IMG/VR virus record: IMGVR_UViG_3300048589_000479
DNA length: 20,000 bases
Source of the DNA: an uncultured virus (IMG/VR IMGVR_UViG_3300048589_000479)
Taxonomy: Duplodnaviria; Heunggongvirae; Uroviricota; Caudoviricetes
Reading direction: 5' to 3' (one strand)
Part shown: one piece after another, positions 2,769 through 20,000 of the stretch
Layout: each line of letters opens with the position of its first letter
How positions within the stretch are numbered: the stretch's first letter is position 1
Position numbers and translations under genes: made by a program
The notes under the pieces: model-generated
Databases searched by the model: none
What the model saw: only the letters and a program-made list of their open reading frames with translations
What the model was told of the DNA's origin: nothing

Positions 2769-3103
2769 CAGTGCAGGTCCATCGACAGCTTCGCGAGCGC
2801 CAGGCCGGACGCGCGCATTTCCTTCGAGTCGCCGAGCTCGGCTGCGATCTCGTAGCTCTTCTGGACACGCCCCCATGCGAGCACGAGCGTCCATGCGCCC
2901 TGGAGCTCTGGCGGCGCCGACTCGGTGAGCTCGTACAGCGCGCGCGCCGCAGCTTCGTCGCCGACCTCGCGGGCCAGCGCCGGCACGTTGCCGAGCACGA
3001 GCAGGCGGTCGATCAGATCCTTCATCGCCAGGTCGTGCGGGTTCATGACCGCGCGCGTCGTGGCCTCGATCTTCTTCCGTCGCTGGATCTCTTCGTAAGT
3101 CAT
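2768..3103 (-). CDS. Hypothetical protein (111 aa)
   Basis: MTYEEIQRRKK...; start/stop overlaps with both neighbours; phage-like codon usage. Confidence 0.75.
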   Translation of the reverse strand: MTYEEIQRRKKIEATTRAVMNPHDLAMKDLIDRLLVLGNVPALAREVGDEAAARALYELTESAPPELQGAWTLVLAWGRVQKSYEIAAELGDSKEMRASGLALAKLSMDLH

Positions 3104-3666
3104 GAGTACCGCCGTCCCGACTCGTGCATGGCGTCGCGGTCGCGCTCGGCGAAGTGCTCCTTCGTGTCGCGCCACTCCGCACGCTCGCGCAGGTCCACAT
3201 CGACCACGCCGCGCAGCACGAACTTCGTGTAGTGGTGCACTTCTTCGTCCGACATTTCACCCTTCATGTACCGCTCCATTTCCTTGCGCGGAGGGCGGGT
3301 GATCGACCAGTGCGTGCACGCGATCTCTTCGAGAACGCGCTTGCGGATCCACAGGTAGAGGTAGGTGTCAGCCTGGATCGGCCGGCCTTTGTAGAGCTTG
3401 CGCGGCTCGTAGCGATCGATGCCTTCGAGGACGCCTTGCCGCGATGCTTGTTCGAGGTCGGCGATCTCGACCCGCGTGTGGCGCGGCATCTTGTTCGCGT
3501 ACTGCTGCGCGATCTTCGGACCCATCGGCATCGCGAGCTCGATTGCCAGGTCGCGCGCCGGCACGAGATACACGCCGTTCTCGCGCGCCTCGTGGATCGT
3601 GTTGTACGGGCCGATCGCGTCGAGGATCACCTGGCGCACTCGTGCGTGGTCGATTCGCTCGCTCAA
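3100..3666 (-). CDS. Short sigma-70-like protein (region 2 only recognisable)
   Basis: ADLEQASRQGVLEGIDRYEP...DTYLYLWIRKRVLEEI matches the sigma region 2.2-2.4 pattern DL.Q....G......RFDP....TY...WIR; no region-4 HTH seen; TTGA overlap with upstream gene. Confidence 0.75.
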   Translation of the reverse strand: MSERIDHARVRQVILDAIGPYNTIHEARENGVYLVPARDLAIELAMPMGPKIAQQYANKMPRHTRVEIADLEQASRQGVLEGIDRYEPRKLYKGRPIQADTYLYLWIRKRVLEEIACTHWSITRPPRKEMERYMKGEMSDEEVHHYTKFVLRGVVDVDLRERAEWRDTKEHFAERDRDAMHESGRRYS

Positions 3667-5728: not shown

Positions 5729-5752
5729 ATCATGAAGAAGGGGTCGGACGCA
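5729..5752 (-). promoter_or_regulatory. Conserved promoter motif copy TGCGTCCG-ACCCCTTCTT-CATGAT
   Basis: Intergenic, 50 nt upstream of ATG 5678 and just downstream of hairpin 5770-5795. Confidence 0.85.
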
Positions 5753-5769
5753 GCCGTTGCAGATGCAGC

Positions 5770-5795
5770 AGGGCGGCCCCGTGTGGAGCCGCCCT
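5770..5795 (-). terminator. GC-rich hairpin, likely terminator
   Basis: - strand AGGGCGGCTCC-ACAC-GGGGCCGCCCT, 27 nt after the stop at 5823; no U-tract. Confidence 0.65.
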
Positions 5796-5822
5796 TCGCG
5801 ATGGAACCTGGTTGTTGTCGAG

Positions 5823-6012: not shown

Positions 6013-6036
6013 ATCATGAAGAAGCGGTCGGACGCT
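6013..6036 (-). promoter_or_regulatory. Conserved promoter motif copy AGCGTCCG-ACCGCTTCTT-CATGAT
   Basis: 34 nt upstream of ATG 5978; overlaps the stop codon of the upstream ORF. Confidence 0.85.
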
Positions 6037-14639: not shown

Positions 14640-14845
14640 CGCCGGTTCCGCTTTCGAGAGGCGCGAGCCGCCTTCGTCTTCGCGCGGGCCGCCACCTTCC
14701 GCTGGCGACGCTGGTCGAACGCCTCGCCCAGACCGGACGAGTAGGCGATGTTCGCGTCGTGCTTCGGAAGCTGCTGCTGCTGGACCGCAATGGTCAGCAG
14801 GGGCCGGCGAAGAGAGTTGAGCTTTGCGCGTGTGATCGGGTGCAT
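14636..14845 (-). CDS. Small basic protein (69 aa)
   Basis: Tail ARAKTKAARASRKRNRR; ATG 6 nt after the promoter motif. Confidence 0.75.
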   Translation of the reverse strand: MHPITRAKLNSLRRPLLTIAVQQQQLPKHDANIAYSSGLGEAFDQRRQRKVAARAKTKAARASRKRNRR

Positions 14846-14851
14846 ACCGAG

Positions 14852-14875
14852 ATCATGAAGAAGCCCTCGGACGCA
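14852..14875 (-). promoter_or_regulatory. Conserved promoter motif copy TGCGTCCG-AGGGCTTCTT-CATGAT (leaderless)
   Basis: 6 nt to ATG 14845; directly after hairpin 14877-14904. Confidence 0.85.
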
Positions 14876-14876
14876 G

Positions 14877-14904
14877 CACGGCCCCCGCCGGAGCAGGGGC
14901 CGTG
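14877..14904 (-). terminator. GC-rich hairpin, likely terminator
   Basis: - strand CACGGCCCCTGC-TCCG-GCGGGGGCCGTG, 21 nt after the stop at 14926. Confidence 0.7.
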
Positions 14905-14925
14905 AGCTTCACCGGGGGATCTGTG

Positions 14926-16215
14926 TCAGTCGGAGAGCGGGTCCGACACCGGCTCGGGCGCCGGGCGGTCGATGCCGTAGCGCGACGAGACGTACCGCAT
15001 CACGCGGATCTGCGCGTCGCGGTCGAGGTCCAGCAGCGCCTCGCGCACGATGTCCATCGCCGCGATCTCCGGATCGAACTCGCCGACCGGCTCCTGGATC
15101 TCGGCCATGTGCACCTTGACGCCCAGCTTGCCGAGCTCGGCTTCCACGTCGCGCGCGGCGCCGGCCGCGAGCTCTGCGTTGCGCAGGCTGCCGTTGTAGG
15201 CACCCAGCGCGCTCTCCGCGTGCTTCATGGAGCCGACGTACAGCCCCATCGCTCGCTCGTGGAGGCCGATCAGCTTGCGAGCGGTCGCCTGCTTGTCACC
15301 GACGGGGAACATGATGCCCCCGTCGAAGTCCACGAGGTCGGCCTGGTACATCGCCTTCGAGAGATCGAACGCCACGATCGAGCGACCGTCCTTGCAGACG
15401 TCCACCCCGATCTCTGCCGCGAGCTCGTCGCCGAGCACGAGCGGTGCATCGGGGCGGCCGCCGTCGCGGGCGAAGTCGCACAGCGCGATTGCCTCCAGGA
15501 CGGAGTTCACTTCCTGCGCGTCGCCCTCGCCGTTGAGCCACCGCTGGATCTCGGCCGGCGGCCACTCGCCCTCGGTCGCGTCGCTGTCGGGCTCCGGCCG
15601 GCTGTCCGGATCGCGGTCGGGGTTGCACTCGTCCGGGTTGCCGCAGCACGTCTCGCCCGCGTCGCGCGGGCAGCCCTCCGGGTTGAGGTTGTACGCCGCC
15701 GCGCGCTCGCGGTCGAGCCGACCGTCCAGGCGCGGGTCGCTCTCGCCGGGCATGATCGTCTTCGACGCCTTGCCCGACTCGATCTCCTCCGGCGTGGCCG
15801 GCAGGTCGATGCCAGTGTCGACGACCTCGTGCAGTCGCACGGTGCCAGGGTGCGCGGGCTCGGCGGCCGCGTTCTTCTCGGCGTCACGCGCCAGGCCGTA
15901 GTGCTTCGTGCACAGGCCGCGCGCTGCGTGACGGCGCGAGAACTTCTCGTCGTCGGGGCACTCCGAGCAGCCGTCCGGGTGGGCGCGGCTCTTCCACTTC
16001 TTGATTCCGAGCATCGGTGTCGTCTCCTGGGTGGGGGGCGCGGCGAACTTCGCCTGACGCTCCGGGTCGTTTTCGCAGAGGCCGCACTTGTCACCCTTGC
16101 GGTACCGCAGGATCTTCGTTCCGCACGCGCAGCGGCGTCCGGTACCGAAGTCCTGCGGCGCCTTCCCCGACAGGCCGCCGGGAGAGATCGCCGAGTAGTG
16201 GGTGCGCTCTGCCAT
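14926..16215 (-). CDS. Hypothetical multi-Cys-cluster protein (429 aa)
   Basis: Start at ATG 16215, 7 nt after the promoter motif; CACG...CGLC, CSEC...ARGLCTKHY and CPRD...CCGNPDEC clusters; C-terminal coiled coil. Confidence 0.8.
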   Translation of the reverse strand: MAERTHYSAISPGGLSGKAPQDFGTGRRCACGTKILRYRKGDKCGLCENDPERQAKFAAPPTQETTPMLGIKKWKSRAHPDGCSECPDDEKFSRRHAARGLCTKHYGLARDAEKNAAAEPAHPGTVRLHEVVDTGIDLPATPEEIESGKASKTIMPGESDPRLDGRLDRERAAAYNLNPEGCPRDAGETCCGNPDECNPDRDPDSRPEPDSDATEGEWPPAEIQRWLNGEGDAQEVNSVLEAIALCDFARDGGRPDAPLVLGDELAAEIGVDVCKDGRSIVAFDLSKAMYQADLVDFDGGIMFPVGDKQATARKLIGLHERAMGLYVGSMKHAESALGAYNGSLRNAELAAGAARDVEAELGKLGVKVHMAEIQEPVGEFDPEIAAMDIVREALLDLDRDAQIRVMRYVSSRYGIDRPAPEPVSDPLSD

Positions 16216-16222
16216 GCACGAG

Positions 16223-16246
16223 ATCATGAAGAAGCAGCCGGACGCA
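16223..16246 (-). promoter_or_regulatory. Conserved promoter motif copy TGCGTCCG-GCTGCTTCTT-CATGAT (leaderless)
   Basis: 7 nt to ATG 16215; directly after hairpin 16250-16287. Confidence 0.85.
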
Positions 16247-16249
16247 GAA

Positions 16250-16287
16250 GAACGCGGGGAGCAACCCGAAGGTCACTCCCGTTGTTC
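16250..16287 (-). terminator. Terminal hairpin with cUUCGg loop
   Basis: - strand GGGAGTGACC-TTCG-GGTTGCTCCC flanked by GAAC/GTTC and followed by TT. Confidence 0.65.
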
Positions 16288-16469
16288 CCGGCCGTCACAC
16301 GATCTTCGGCTATCGCCCGGCGCCGTGTCAGTAGAAACCGTCTCGCTCGCAAAGTGTCGGACGTGGCTGGCCTGCGTGTGCGTCGTACACGGCTACGCTG
16401 CCGTCGTCACACGTTTCCCGCTGCTATTCCGGCTCCGGTCATGGCCTCGGCTGGATTCGGTACGTCCAC
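16250..16469 (-). ncRNA. Candidate structured ncRNA B (~220 nt)
   Basis: Own promoter motif (16475-16498), terminal hairpin, nested stems GGACGT/ACGTCC, CGTGTG/CACACG and ACGGC/GCCGT; only a 20-codon ORF at its start. Confidence 0.5.
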
Positions 16470-16474
16470 GAAGA

Positions 16475-16498
16475 AGCGTAGCATGGCCGCCGGACGCA
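16475..16498 (-). promoter_or_regulatory. Conserved promoter motif copy TGCGTCCG-GCGGCCATGC-TACGCT
   Basis: Exact 8-mer, N10, TANNNT; follows terminator 16512-16537. Confidence 0.8.
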
Positions 16499-16511
16499 CC
16501 CGGATACACGA

Positions 16512-16537
16512 ACGCCCCCGCTCGGAAGCGGGGGCGT
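16512..16537 (-). terminator. Intrinsic terminator
   Basis: Perfect 11-bp stem ACGCCCCCGCT-TCCG-AGCGGGGGCGT followed by TCGTGTAT on the - strand. Confidence 0.8.
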
Positions 16538-16540
16538 CGC

Positions 16541-16796
16541 TGGTAGATCCACCGGGGCTCTCACCCGGCAAGCCCATTTAGGTCCACGAACCCGGACGAA
16601 CCGGGAGCGACCATCTTTGGGTGGCGCCAGTGTCCGAGCCCTTTGTGCCAGTCGCCCGATCAGGTTCATCTGGAGCCGCTTCGATCCCGAGCATTCTCCA
16701 CTGCCAACCCGGAGCTCTAGTCCCGGTCCCGCGATACTCGAAAGTTGCGCGGTGCAGTTTCGGGAGGAGCCCTGCGGCGGCGCCTCCGATCAACAA
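16541..16796 (-). ncRNA. Candidate structured ncRNA A (~255 nt) ending in T-loop arm + ACCA
   Basis: Own promoter motif (16802-16825), terminator 3 nt after ...GGATCTACCA, at least 7 stems visible by eye, and atypical codons in the overlapping frame. Confidence 0.6.
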
Positions 16797-16801
16797 GGGG
16801 A

Positions 16802-16825
16802 ACGATACACAGGTCGCCGGACGCA
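16802..16825 (-). promoter_or_regulatory. Conserved promoter motif copy TGCGTCCG-GCGACCTGTG-TATCGT
   Basis: Exact 8-mer, N10, TANNNT; back-to-back with 16847-16870. Confidence 0.8.
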
Positions 16826-16846
16826 AGTCAAGCACGAGTTTCGCAG

Positions 16847-16870
16847 TGCGTCCGACTTCACTGTGAAGAT
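16847..16870 (+). promoter_or_regulatory. Conserved promoter motif copy TGCGTCCG-ACTTCACTGT-GAAGAT (leaderless, sigma gene)
   Basis: The only + strand copy with a valid -10; 7 nt before the in-frame GTG 16878 of the only + strand gene. Confidence 0.8.
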
Positions 16871-16877
16871 CCTGGAA

Positions 16878-17627
16878 GTGAAGCCGTTTGAGACACGCCG
16901 AGCAATCGAGGAGTCCATGCGATCGGGCGCCGCCCGCATCCTGGACGACTCCCGCGTGCTGTCCGACGATCCCCGCGAGCACTCCGAGCTCCTGACACGC
17001 TTCGCGGTCCAGGCCAACGCCGGCAACGAAGCCGCGATGAACATCGTGGTGAACTGCATGAGCCGCCTGGTCTTCCGGCTGTCGGAGACGTACTTCTGGA
17101 AGTGGAGCACGCACCTGCCTGCCCACGCCTCGTTCGACAACGTGTTCAATGCCGGCCTGGAGGGGCTCGTGATCGGCACCGGCAAGTTCGACCCGGAGCG
17201 CGGCACGGTGCTCACCACGAGCGCGACGCACTGGATCCGCACGAAGGTCCAGCGCGAGATCTACGCGCAGTGCGGCGCCGCGCGCATCCCGGAGCACGTT
17301 CTGCAGGGCGGGCTCGACCCCGGCTCTCCGCTCGTCGCGAGCTCGACGTCCAGCCTGGACTTCCGCTATGAAGAAGACGGGCCGAGCCTCGGCGACACGA
17401 TCCCGGCCGAAGACGAGACGCTCGAAGAGGCCGGGCAGCGCGCAGCCCTCGAGAAGATCGTCGCGCTGCTGCGCACCCTGGACGACAAGATGCCGAAGGT
17501 CGCCGAGTACCTGGAGCGCGGCTACGCGGATCGAGAGATCGCACGGCTGACAGGGCTCACGTCGAAGCGCGTTGCCGAGCTACGCGGGCAGGCCGAGCAG
17601 CTTCTTCGCTCGCACGGCTACGGCTGA
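16878..17627 (+). CDS. Phage-encoded sigma-70-family factor (249 aa)
   Basis: Region 1.2/2.1 ANAGNEAAMNIVVNCMSRLVFRLS; region 2.2-2.4 AGLEGLVIGTGKFDPERGTVLTTSATHWIR; SSLD...SLGDTI; region 4 GYADREIARLTGLTSKRVAEL. Start reassigned to GTG 16878. Confidence 0.9.
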   Translation: MKPFETRRAIEESMRSGAARILDDSRVLSDDPREHSELLTRFAVQANAGNEAAMNIVVNCMSRLVFRLSETYFWKWSTHLPAHASFDNVFNAGLEGLVIGTGKFDPERGTVLTTSATHWIRTKVQREIYAQCGAARIPEHVLQGGLDPGSPLVASSTSSLDFRYEEDGPSLGDTIPAEDETLEEAGQRAALEKIVALLRTLDDKMPKVAEYLERGYADREIARLTGLTSKRVAELRGQAEQLLRSHGYG

Positions 17628-18172
17628 CTCGGTTCGTCCAGGTCTGCGAGGTCGGCGTCGAGCTCGCCGTTGTCCACCATCGACTGACCCAGCGCGAGCG
17701 CGGTGACGCTCTGCTCCCAGGCGCCCATCGCGTGAAACGCCACGAAGAGGGCGTTGTTGACGTAGAAGGTCTGCTCGAAGCCGCACTCCACGCACGCCTG
17801 GTTGATCTCGGCGTACACCGCGCCCTCGTTGATCGACCAGTCGCCGAAGCCGAAGCCTCCCGCGAGCGACTGACACTGCGAGCAGCGCCGGATGTCCTCG
17901 CCCTTCTGGAGCACCACGTCGAGCGACTCGTAGAACGACGGCGCCGGACGGGTCGACGTCCACGCCGGAGAGTCGGCCACGTCCGGAGCGTCCGGCAGCG
18001 ACTCGAACTGGACGGCGCCACCCTCGATCGGGCCGCCGTCGGAGAAGATCCCCGGCCCATCGTCTCGTCGCAGCAGCAAGCGCACGCTCGGGCCGAGCAC
18101 TCGCCATGCGAGGCCACCCAGGACGTACAGCAGCACTGCCGCAACGAGGACGATGGAGCCGGCGTCGCTCAC
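17618..18172 (-). CDS. Membrane-anchored Zn-ribbon protein (184 aa)
   Basis: GTG 18172 (GTGA overlap); N-terminal TM IVLVAAVLLYVLGGLAW; CSQC...CVECG. Confidence 0.7.
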   Translation of the reverse strand: MSDAGSIVLVAAVLLYVLGGLAWRVLGPSVRLLLRRDDGPGIFSDGGPIEGGAVQFESLPDAPDVADSPAWTSTRPAPSFYESLDVVLQKGEDIRRCSQCQSLAGGFGFGDWSINEGAVYAEINQACVECGFEQTFYVNNALFVAFHAMGAWEQSVTALALGQSMVDNGELDADLADLDEPSQP

Positions 18173-20000
18173 GGCTGCGGGACGCCGATCGGAGCGGGAG
18201 CCGGCACGCCCTGCGCGACCGGCTGCTGCGCCAGGTCGTAGGCGGGCGCCACCGGCACCTGCTGGACCTGCTGCGGCGTGACGTGGTGCACGGGAGCGAC
18301 GGCCTGCGCGGGCGGCACCGACTGCGCAGCGGGGACCGGCGTCGGGATGTGCTGCGCCTGCTGGACCTGCGGGACGGTCGTGCCGAAGGGCGGTGCACCG
18401 GCGGCCTGGAGCTCGCCGAGCTCTGCCATATCGGTGATGAACCACTCCGGGTGAGCGATCCGGCACATCAGGTGGATGCGCTGCGCCTTGACGTGCGCCA
18501 GGTGCGCGGCTCGCGCGTCCTCGACGGTCGCCGCGTGCTGTGCGCGCCAGAGCGCTTCCAGGTGGTTCTTCCACTGCGCCAGCGCGCGCTCGCGGCCGAG
18601 CCCGGAGATCTTCTGCCAGTTCGGGTCGTCCATCGGCGGGAAGTCGGCGACAGGAATCGGCTCGCCCAGCTTGCCTTCCGGGTCGTCCACGGCTGCCGCC
18701 TGGTAGTGGCCTCGCAGCGCTTCGAGCTCGTTGTGCGAGTCGCGCCGGATCGTCTCGTGGATCGAGACGTTCGTGCGGCACTTCTCCGCGTCGCCGACGG
18801 CATACATGCCGACCGACCATAGGAAACGGGTGTCTGCTCCCATGTTGTCCTCCGTTGTGTAGGGCAGGTCGCGATGACCCACGCCGGTTGTGTACGCCGC
18901 GAGCATCTTGTCGCGGCCTTGCTCGAACACATAGCGCGCCGCTTCGCGGTACCCCATTGCGTCGATCTCTTCCTTCATGCTCGCCGGGATGACCCAGCCG
19001 TGCGTTGAAATAGCGAGGAGCATTCCCATGCTGTGCTTCTCCGTCCAGAGGTAGTCGCGGGAGTCTAGCGGAGCGGCCAGTCCATGCGGGTCAGGGTTGT
19101 GCGGCGGTGGCAGCGTCGGGTCTTCGTCCGGCTCGTCGGTGTCAGTCGTCGCCGGGGGAAGAAGCCAGAGCGTGCCGCGCGGCCGCGAACCGTCGCTCAT
19201 GCGGAACTGATGGCCCTGCTTGCACACGCCCTCCGCGCAGGACTGCTCGATGATCTGCATCGTGACGCCGTAGCGAGCGTTGAGCATTTCCATGCCGGCA
19301 CGCAGAAGAACAACGCGGCGCGTGCCGTCGGAGAGCGAGTCGAGCGTGCGTCCGAGGTAGCCCTGCAGAGGGTGCGGCGCGTCGTAGATCTCGGTACCCA
19401 GCGCGCGGTCGAAGCGATGCGGGTGCGACGCCAGCATCTCCTCGACGCTCGACACGGCGCCGCTGACGCCCGTGAGCTCGGAGTCCTTCGTCGCACCGCC
19501 CGCGCCTGCGCCGGCCTCCATGTACGGCGCCAGCAGGTCGAGCGCTCGCGCCACCGCACCGTCGAAGTCGGCACCGACTGACACCTGCGCCAGCAGGCCG
19601 AAGCCGAGCGCGATCATGGCGAGCGACTCGCGCTGCGTCAGCGTCACGTCCCGGCTCTGCGGCATTGCAGCTATGCGGCTGCGCACTCCCTGCCACAGCC
19701 CGTGGAGCTCGCGGGCGGCCACGACCTCGCGGATGCGTGCGACCAGGAGCTCGCCGGGCGCGCCGCCCACGCTGGCCGACAGGTCGTTCACCTGCTCCGC
19801 ATATGGCTGGCCCAGGCTGCGCTCGCTCATGGGGCGCGCCTCGATCGTGGAGATACGTCGGCGCTGGCCGGCTGTCACGATCGCCTTCGAGCTCTCCGAG
19901 CTCATGTTGACCTCGGCCGAGAAGATCGCGCTCGACCGGAACGCGCGCGTCTGGCGAATGCCACCCTCGCGGGTCGCGCGCTCGATCGGCTTGCGGTTGA
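18169..20000 (-). CDS. C-terminal part of a DUF927-like primase/helicase (5' end outside window)
   Basis: The frame stays open upstream of ATG 19905: NRKPIERATREGGIRQTRAFRSSAIFSAE...TAGQRRR, resembling the RA.R.G..R....WR....STGE...AGQ..R motifs of DUF927/Cch-like ATPases. Confidence 0.6.
   Translation of the reverse strand, partial: NRKPIERATREGGIRQTRAFRSSAIFSAEVNMSSESSKAIVTAGQRRRISTIEARPMSERSLGQPYAEQVNDLSASVGGAPGELLVARIREVVAARELHGLWQGVRSRIAAMPQSRDVTLTQRESLAMIALGFGLLAQVSVGADFDGAVARALDLLAPYMEAGAGAGGATKDSELTGVSGAVSSVEEMLASHPHRFDRALGTEIYDAPHPLQGYLGRTLDSLSDGTRRVVLLRAGMEMLNARYGVTMQIIEQSCAEGVCKQGHQFRMSDGSRPRGTLWLLPPATTDTDEPDEDPTLPPPHNPDPHGLAAPLDSRDYLWTEKHSMGMLLAISTHGWVIPASMKEEIDAMGYREAARYVFEQGRDKMLAAYTTGVGHRDLPYTTEDNMGADTRFLWSVGMYAVGDAEKCRTNVSIHETIRRDSHNELEALRGHYQAAAVDDPEGKLGEPIPVADFPPMDDPNWQKISGLGRERALAQWKNHLEALWRAQHAATVEDARAAHLAHVKAQRIHLMCRIAHPEWFITDMAELGELQAAGAPPFGTTVPQVQQAQHIPTPVPAAQSVPPAQAVAPVHHVTPQQVQQVPVAPAYDLAQQPVAQGVPAPAPIGVPQP

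Follow-up and report, generated by a model that had tools for sequence, protein, structure and literature searches.

This study concerns a noncoding region (16216-16877), and the sigma-70-family gene beside it, in a 20,000-nt stretch of DNA from the uncultured virus IMGVR_UViG_3300048589_000479 (Caudoviricetes), the whole of which is called the window here. The region is tentatively read as the early control region of an actinobacteria-type phage, made up of one conserved small-RNA gene (unit 1) and one dispensable insert (unit 2), with unit 1 specifying an early RNA that would act in trans; a probability of roughly 0.45 is attached to this reading. An earlier note on the same DNA had seen in the region two candidate structured RNAs, co-regulated with the phage sigma factor and possibly its partners. 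A direct partnership of RNA and sigma factor is not indicated by the results below.

Unit 1 would be a self-contained noncoding transcription unit, with the anatomy of a small-RNA gene and a host-type promoter, P1. Host RNA polymerase carrying the housekeeping sigma factor would fire P1 early, because no other promoter of the region has a -35/-10 pair of the host type. The transcript is predicted to start near 16795 and to end at the T1 hairpin, giving an RNA of about 290 nt (the earlier note had put it at ~255 nt) or, in a metagenome relative designated L002, of ~200 nt, whose functional part would be the conserved first ~140 nt. The gene that follows has a promoter of its own, P3, situated 7 nt before the ATG and without a Shine-Dalgarno sequence, so that read-through from P1 is unneeded and would be poorly suited to express this gene; for that reason unit 1 is read as a stand-alone early RNA, which may act in trans as a protein-binding or host-directed RNA. 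Unit 2 would be an accessory insert between two copies of the motif TGCGTCCG, and the sigma gene a neighbour driven by one of eight promoters that carry the motif.

Layout and coding content of the region

The gene map was produced with a codon-usage caller built for this analysis, which is crude and leaves starts uncertain. It contains 34 genes, all on the - strand except the sigma gene on the + strand. By far the largest gap is the one that adjoins the sigma gene, covering 16228-16862 (635 nt) on the map and, once the starts are revised to 16215 and 16878, 16216-16877 (662 nt). Genes had been described as otherwise overlapping by 1-4 nt; overlaps of 1 or 4 nt were found at 17 of the 33 junctions, but there are ten intergenic gaps of at least 14 nt, and the nine others span 14-144 nt, showing that the genome is not uniformly tight. 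Read along the - strand the gap holds P1, unit 1, T1, P2, unit 2, T2, P3 and then the ATG at 16215, and the twofold succession of promoter, unit and terminator proposed earlier was thereby confirmed as a layout. Its elements are listed here, with their state in L002 and in a second relative, the contig X8 record 25, where this differs.

16847..16870, + strand: motif promoter of the sigma gene, TGCGTCCG-N10-GAAGAT, 7 nt to GTG 16878, leaderless geometry
16802..16831, - strand: P1, with -35 TTGACT, an 18-nt spacer beginning with TGCGTCCG, and -10 TATCGT
16660..16798, - strand: conserved 5' core of unit 1, with a predicted closing helix around a Y-shaped junction
16541..16659, - strand: variable linker of unit 1, containing 16553-16618 (joint 16552-16619), which is 15 nt in X8 record 25 and absent from L002
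16508..16540, - strand: T1 hairpin, an 11-bp perfect GC stem with the tail UUCGUGUAU
16475..16498, - strand: P2 motif promoter, TGCGTCCG-N10-TACGCT, absent from L002
16250..16469, - strand: unit 2, a ~220-nt strain-variable noncoding insert ending in the T2 hairpin (16257-16280)
16223..16246, - strand: P3 motif promoter, TGCGTCCG-GCTG-CTTCTTCATGAT, 7 nt before ATG 16215

The gap is noncoding on both strands. The bias in G+C content at third codon positions (GC3) that is typical of the genes was not found in any frame of 16230-16860, and the open reading frames (ORFs) of the gap score -0.19 to -0.75 bits per codon, compared with +0.36 to +0.73 for real genes, including small genes outside the training set. 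No tRNA was found in the region. ORFs on the + strand that begin with 'MKK', read from the complement of the motif, were rejected as genes; they run to 16, 35 and >100 codons, are conserved in the motif only, and one scored -0.27 per codon.

Both T1 and T2 are GC-rich, stable hairpins as expected of intrinsic terminators, and are followed by the tails UUCGUGUA and CGUUCUUC. The predicted energy of T1 is -27.2 kcal/mol (z -4.72) and that of T2 -19.9 kcal/mol (z -2.12). L002 preserves T1 by wobble and double changes (-26.2 kcal/mol, z -5.04), and T1 is also present in the X8 contig. Within 16553-16618 of the unit 1 linker, 16579-16606 repeats the P2 region in degenerate form (direct repeats D3, D6 and D10).

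Conservation among relatives

A blastn search with 15800-18200 against 50,697 phage records gave no DNA match, and the sigma protein had distant matches only (<=40% identity) in the phage collection. IMG/VR held nothing close for the sigma protein (one weak 38% fragment), the sigma alignment, two DNA patterns of the core or the downstream protein. The sigma alignment found no relative in the GTDB species genomes, and nine GTDB matches to an 18-mer of the core were attributed to chance, there being no wider blastn similarity. The JGI metagenomes yielded 183 relatives of the sigma protein, of which 80 were kept; the close ones among these were L002 and L003 only, and L002 was the only metagenome contig with both the sigma gene and the DNA upstream of it. 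Contigs of four wastewater runs were also aligned to the window, in pieces at 95-99% identity, and included the 29.7-kb relative X8 record 25. The full sequence of the noncoding region was compared between two genomes, the window and L002. DNA near-identical or related to 14800-17700 is found in public metagenome contigs from biofilm, wastewater and activated sludge; part of it is present in 20 runs of 12 studies, and half or more of the sampled words in five runs.

Between the window and L002 the unit 1 core is 88% identical over 139 columns, compared with 65% amino acid identity for the sigma protein (residues 1-159) and 41% for the product of the downstream gene. The layout in L002 is P1, core, a shorter linker, T1 and, immediately behind it, P3 and the gene; it lacks unit 2, T2 and P2. 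X8 record 25 keeps 16619-16860 and T1, with 16553-16618 replaced by 15 nt and most of unit 2 (211 nt, 16289-16499) replaced by 72 nt. Unit 2 is retained in the contigs X5 record 12 and X12 record 4, and pieces of X5, X7 and X12 overlap the unit 1 core. From these alignments the promoter, core and terminator of unit 1 appear conserved, the linker free to vary and unit 2 dispensable. The check proposed in the earlier note, whether the DNA upstream of the sigma gene is co-conserved with it, therefore came out, in these two relatives, in favour of one conserved noncoding unit travelling with the sigma gene and not two. Unit 1 adjoins the sigma gene in 3/3 genomes where the junction is visible, namely the window, L002 and X8 record 25. 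At 16499-16508 a degenerate copy of the motif, TGTATCCG, stands directly before the TGCGTCCG of P2, and it is to this degenerate copy that the single site of L002 aligns, which suggests that unit 2 was gained or lost between motif copies, probably via recombination. When 82 sources were searched with a covariance model of the core (R1, built from two sequences), no other copy came up; self-hits aside, the highest score was 11.8 bits, at an E-value of 2.2.

Predicted structure of the unit 1 RNA

Separate minimum free energy folds of the window and L002 cores gave the same Y-shaped junction. Its stem is ACUGC/GCAGU in the window and GCUCC/GGAGU in L002, with one G:C to C:G swap between them. The junction holds an invariant 27-nt hairpin with a UUCG loop and a second hairpin that has the same shape but a different sequence in L002, and it is enclosed by a helix of the 5' end and the conserved GCGGCUCC. 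The consensus fold of the - strand (-67.5 kcal/mol) accommodates four double changes and eight single wobble-compatible changes, while that of the + strand is 13 kcal/mol worse (-54.5 kcal/mol) and has five double and four single changes. Since two sequences are involved, the compensatory changes in the core are suggestive only.

A search of 4227 Rfam families, at E-values up to 10 on 16200-16900 and on L002 3850-4200, found no match to 6S, Ms1 or another family, the only hits being terminator-like fragments of unrelated families. A riboswitch was rejected, since core and T1 are separated by as little as 45 nt and as much as 125 nt in different relatives.

Motif promoters and the possibility of a cis-acting leader

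The core motif TGCGTCCG occurs eight times in the window against 2.58 expected, a number reached in 1/200 shuffles. The full pattern GYGTCCG-N10-NANNNT also occurs eight times, against 0.56 expected and in 0/200 shuffles, at the following positions.

661, 5752, 6036 (AGCGTCCG), 14875, 16246, 16498 and 16825, - strand, and 16847, + strand: full-pattern motif sites, intergenic

All eight sites are intergenic on the gene map and co-oriented with the downstream gene, and the single intragenic TGCGTCCG, at 19347, is without the hexamer. A start codon lies 5-7 nt after the hexamer at six of them (661, 14875, P3, P2, the sigma site and, as a TTG, P1). At 5752 the ATG of the gene is ~50 nt downstream, and at 6036 the ATG within CATGAT may be the gene start itself. 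Four sites (5752, 6036, 14875 and 16246) have in common the longer consensus TGCGTCCG-N4-CTTCTTCATGAT. The box is positioned at about -30, not -35, and could be read by a phage sigma factor, an activator or a repressor. T4 middle promoters are the model for a reader of the activator type. For a reader of the repressor type the model is provided by the stoperators of L5, as described in PMC5712189.

The back-to-back motif promoters reported earlier at 16802-16825 (-) and 16847-16870 (+), 21 bp apart, proved exact, each having the form TGCGTCCG-N10-NANNNT. They had been taken for a shared promoter, and the motif is indeed present in both, but the two differ in kind. P1 is the only motif site with a canonical -35, and only P1 has the -35/-10 pair; the sigma gene's motif promoter is without a -35, like five other sites (P2, P3, 14875, 5752 and 661). 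Co-regulation of unit 1 and the sigma gene is consequently not necessary. P1 is TTGACG-18-TATCGT in L002, with five of ten variable spacer bases changed. The sigma promoter of L002, AGCGTCCG-N10-GAAGAT-7-GTG, has the same geometry as that of the window, and its P3, TGTGTCCG-N10-CATGCT-7-ATG, comes immediately after the L002 T1.

Strong GC hairpins immediately precede four of the - strand motif sites (T1, T2, 14876-14905 and 5760-5800), so that the - strand block is cut into cassettes of hairpin plus promoter, a recurring unit boundary. The latter two hairpins, both on the - strand, have energies of -28.0 kcal/mol (z -5.9) and -27.7 kcal/mol (z -5.6) respectively.

The same arrangement could be explained if unit 1 were the cis-acting leader of an early operon, serving antitermination or insulation, with P1 transcripts stopping at T1 and T2 unless the polymerase is modified to resist terminators by the conserved RNA core or by a protein bound at the TGCGTCCG in the P1 spacer. 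We regard this as unlikely. Unit 1 does head a long co-directional block of - strand genes, which holds the further hairpins at 14876-14905 and 5760-5800; its conserved part begins at the predicted transcription start and has at least two predicted stems; and the free spacing of core and terminator is as expected of a processive, not a riboswitch-type, mechanism. The position of TGCGTCCG between the -35 and -10 of P1 is also that of the Q-binding element of lambda. The lambda series PR'-6S RNA-tR' with Q and the put RNA of HK022 are the familiar cases of a promoter-proximal terminated leader and of processive antitermination, and the locus resembles them in its host-type promoter and short terminated transcript heading a long operon with further terminators, as well as in a conserved predicted stem-loop RNA directly after the start site. 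However, neither Q, N nor any other antiterminator family was found in 27 ORFs, there is no sequence or Rfam relation to known leaders, and the host phylum is another one. Each block after a hairpin, moreover, has its own motif promoter 5-7 nt before the start codon and is without a Shine-Dalgarno sequence, so that read-through would be unneeded and the internal starts poorly translatable.

Evidence against a small-RNA gene

A number of caveats must be applied to the reading of unit 1 as a trans-acting small RNA. Its transcription is deduced from the sequence, and three runs labelled RNA-Seq consist of contigs that are probably DNA. Matches to a canonical promoter are not rare, with 2 in the window against 1.2 expected. 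Both T1 and T2 were missed by a simple terminator scan on account of their weak T-tails, which fall short of a U-rich tail with at least five T in eight. The z-scores of the folds are not significant for unit 1 (298 nt, -1.37), its core (-0.59) or the L002 core (-0.18); the core on the + strand gave -0.21 and unit 2 +0.65, and the description of the units as structured thus draws no support from folding energy. The covariation check suggested in the earlier note produced a few compensatory changes, the G:C to C:G swap among them, but these come from two sequences and double changes are as many on the + strand as on the - strand. Finally, X12 record 5 (16669-16874) differs from the window at 24 of ~206 positions, so that the core is not unusually conserved in every lineage.

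A further point is that a TTG 5 nt after the P1 -10 opens a 72-codon frame with the geometry of leaderless genes. Unit 1 might then encode a small leaderless protein (TTG 16796, stop 16578), the spacing of the TTG being that of the start codons at five other motif promoters. This seems extremely unlikely, as the frame scores -0.354 bits per codon (-25.5 bits in total) against >=+0.36 for real small genes, its GC3 is ~64% against 0.80-0.93 in genes, and the five substitutions of the conserved stretch are not concentrated at third positions. The corresponding frame of L002 lacks a matching stop and reads on past the terminator into the following gene (150 aa).

The invariant 27-nt hairpin is at the same time an imperfect palindrome in the DNA, and could therefore be a protein-binding site on DNA. 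Such an interpretation can be extended to the region as a whole, which would be a DNA-level element, either an operator- or stoperator-like array for a phage repressor or a replication origin, possibly RNA-primed. The motif, which is asymmetric and overlaps P1, has its copies between genes only and in a single orientation (8/8 sites), a distribution like that described for the L5 stoperators (PMC5712189). Among relatives, DNA between motif copies has been lost or gained, and the region heads genes of DNA metabolism (SNF2 helicase). Origins with noncoding RNAs exist in actinophages according to PMC7157519, which describes RNA-based prophage origins in parABS mycobacteriophages; like those, the present region is noncoding DNA of an actinophage, of the order of their 400-500 bp, without an ORF and transcribed, in this case by prediction. 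The origins in PMC7157519 adjoin parABS and are read away from parA, whereas no ParA was found in the window, there is no adjacent parS, and a ParB-like gene lies 8 kb away. A DNA-level element is also difficult to reconcile with conservation that reaches ~140 nt past a conserved promoter on the side transcribed from it and stops at a terminator that is itself conserved, or with single-side stem changes that are wobble-compatible on the - strand (8 pairs). There is no AT-rich stretch (GC 0.64-0.65 across 16001-17000, with flat skew) and there are no iterons besides the motif. On balance a function at the level of DNA is decidedly unlikely, and classical features of a replication origin were ruled out by the scans of GC, skew and repeats. 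An early trans-acting RNA from unit 1 is still the reading we favour.

The sigma factor and its possible relation to the RNA

The genes for sigma-like proteins in the window are the following.

16878..17627, + strand: sigma-70-family factor gene, 249 aa with GTG 16878 as the start (254 aa with GTG 16863)
3100-3666, - strand: second, shorter sigma-like gene, 188 aa, directly upstream of the small- and large-terminase genes

The only + strand gene is a sigma-70-family factor, and its description as such in the earlier note was borne out by the 34-gene map and by the matches of its product. The protein matched phrog_351 (E 4.6e-17) and RpoS chains in the PDB (E 1.2e-8, residues 3-148), and public assemblies yielded 17 homologues with 47-100% identity, of which P0002-P0017 have 47-87% and are encoded on contigs of up to 43 kb. 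A profile of the 17 family members matched SigA at 4.5e-14; regions 3-4 gave a second stretch, colinear with the first but weak. Pfam Sigma70_r2 was found in 16/17 members at E<=1 (best 1.6e-7), but the protein of the window itself reached only 0.031, which does not pass the cut-off. Several NCBIfam sigma models also matched, all below their cut-offs; TIGR02394 gave 8.7e-14, and TIGR02937 spans residues 63-243 at 25.1 bits where the cut-off is 42.9. By sequence comparison the protein has a sigma-2 domain (regions 1.2-2.4), the part of a sigma factor that contacts core RNA polymerase and the -10 element, and this domain is nearest to group 1/2 sigmas (RpoS, SigA).

In an AlphaFold2 (AF2) model with a mean confidence (pLDDT) of 76.7, a helical domain at the N-terminus is followed by a disordered stretch (144-186) and then by a C-terminal domain of four helices (187-250). 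The top Foldseek matches of the model were all sigma factors, aligned over the whole length with probability 1.0, although at template modelling (TM) scores of only 0.29-0.38. By Pfam the C-terminal helix-turn-helix (HTH) is Sigma70_r4_2 in only 2/17 members at E<=1 and the KorA HTH in 6/17. No sigma-3 domain was recognised: residues 144-186 are of low confidence and without a helical domain, Sigma70_r3 was found in 1/17 members at E 0.11, and only the region 3.0-like RIPEH motif aligns in the comparison with RpoS from the PDB. The protein thus appears from its sequence and model to consist of a sigma-2 domain and a sigma-4-like HTH, without a recognisable sigma-3, and to have called it a full sigma factor was an overstatement.

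Several homologues keep residues that are encoded upstream of the ATG chosen by gene callers, and the codon score of 16863-16916 is gene-like (+0.73 per codon). The geometry of the motif promoter favours GTG 16878, as a leaderless start, over GTG 16863. At its other end the sigma gene converges on the - strand gene 17618-18172, with which it shares its last 10 nt, stop included (17618-17627); no hairpin separates the two, and transcription from either gene would run antisense into the other. The product of 3100-3666 matched Sigma70_r2 at E 0.002, phrog_351 at 8e-5 and the FliA/WhiG model at 5.5e-4, and with the gene at 16878-17627 the phage therefore carries two sigma-like factors.

That the RNAs bind the phage sigma, the host sigma or RNA polymerase in the manner of 6S, Ms1 or CoRP, sequester host RNA polymerase, or guide the sigma factor, was the proposal that first drew attention to the region. 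Unit 1 is next to the sigma gene in all three genomes mentioned above, and a candidate noncoding RNA of 200-300 nt beside a gene for a transcription factor is reminiscent of those RNAs; the polymerase-binding RNAs of actinobacteria are diverse in sequence and escape sequence searches, as noted in PMC11077062. A system in which an RNA guides sigma through dCas12f has been published (dCas12f-sigmaE, PMC12259090), where likewise a sigma gene lies beside a noncoding RNA locus. However, between genomes so closely related adjacency amounts to ordinary synteny, the promoter of the sigma gene differs in kind from P1, and neither 6S, Ms1 nor any of the 4227 Rfam families was matched by covariance model. 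The predicted fold is a branched junction rather than the long hairpin with a central bubble that mimics an open promoter. As to guidance, no Cas12f/TnpB-like protein was found among 27 ORFs of the window, and the sigma-2 domain is near group 1/2 and not an extracytoplasmic function (ECF) sigma-E. We consider such binding or guidance very unlikely. A more specific version, in which a counterpart of 6S, Ms1 or CoRP was inherited with the phage sigma, is made first by the host polymerase from P1 and helps to hand the enzyme from the host sigma to a phage sigma reading TGCGTCCG-type promoters, is if anything a shade more improbable. Base-pairing with the sigma mRNA was rejected, as the window has a single 10-nt match (D11) and L002 does not share it.

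Comparison with the Pleft locus of Cluster A phages

The described layout closest to the present one is the Pleft locus of the Cluster A mycobacteriophages (L5, D29, StarStuff). According to the account in PMC5712189, a noncoding stretch of ~500 bp lies there between the early promoter and the first gene, asymmetric repressor sites overlap Pleft and recur intergenically in one orientation, and relatives have deletions between these sites. The same source describes the early small noncoding RNAs from this locus in L5 and D29 as the most abundant and stable transcripts of the infection, toxic to the host and of unknown function; the RNA of unit 1 would be their counterpart, in an analogy that accordingly names a kind of locus and not a mechanism. 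Shared with the window are an early promoter (by prediction) that shares sequence with an asymmetric repeated site, a noncoding stretch of ~500-650 bp before the first gene, the recurrence of the site in one orientation between genes, deletions between copies and an actinobacterial host range. Unlike Pleft, the region has no blastn relation to Cluster A phages among the phage records searched, and its repeated site keeps a fixed spacing to -10-like hexamers and to start codons, which makes it look like part of a promoter.

Neighbouring genes

The GC content of the window is 62-76%. Its phage genes include the large terminase (684-2258), a small-terminase-like gene, an HD phosphohydrolase, a ParB-like/DUF6551 protein, a MarR-type regulator and the SNF2 helicase. 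Compared with the terminases of Microbacterium, Arthrobacter and Gordonia phages, that of the window shows only ~28% identity. The gene next to the noncoding region on its downstream side is as follows.

14926..16215, - strand: first gene after the noncoding region, 429-aa Cys-rich protein of no known family

Its product had no sequence match in Pfam, PHROG, NCBIfam or the PDB. Across six sequences (five homologues and the 429 aa of the window), which run to 310-464 aa, an N-terminal Cys-rich part of ~115 aa and a C-terminal part of ~110 aa are conserved and the middle is highly variable; the N-terminal motifs are CAC...CGLCE and C..CP...RH...GLC..HY. The conserved ~115 and ~110 residues leave no room for a RuvC domain, and a Cas12f-like neighbour was ruled out, the conserved parts being too short and Cys-rich or helical. 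By Pfam no Cas12f/TnpB-like family was found in 27 ORFs at E<=0.01. The products of 17618-18172 and 18169-19998 had no match in Pfam, PHROG or NCBIfam.

Implications

The link between sigma factor and RNA is not supported by the present evidence. If unit 1 is transcribed as predicted, it would be an example, novel in sequence, of the poorly understood small noncoding RNAs that are made in bulk from the first promoter of actinobacterial phages. The locus is compact and well delimited, with a canonical promoter, a conserved core of 140 nt and a clean hairpin terminator, and would for that reason be easier to dissect than the region in L5. The eight phage promoters, with their fixed -30 box, -10-like hexamer and leaderless start, would together with the two sigma-like genes constitute a testable system for the redirection of host RNA polymerase.

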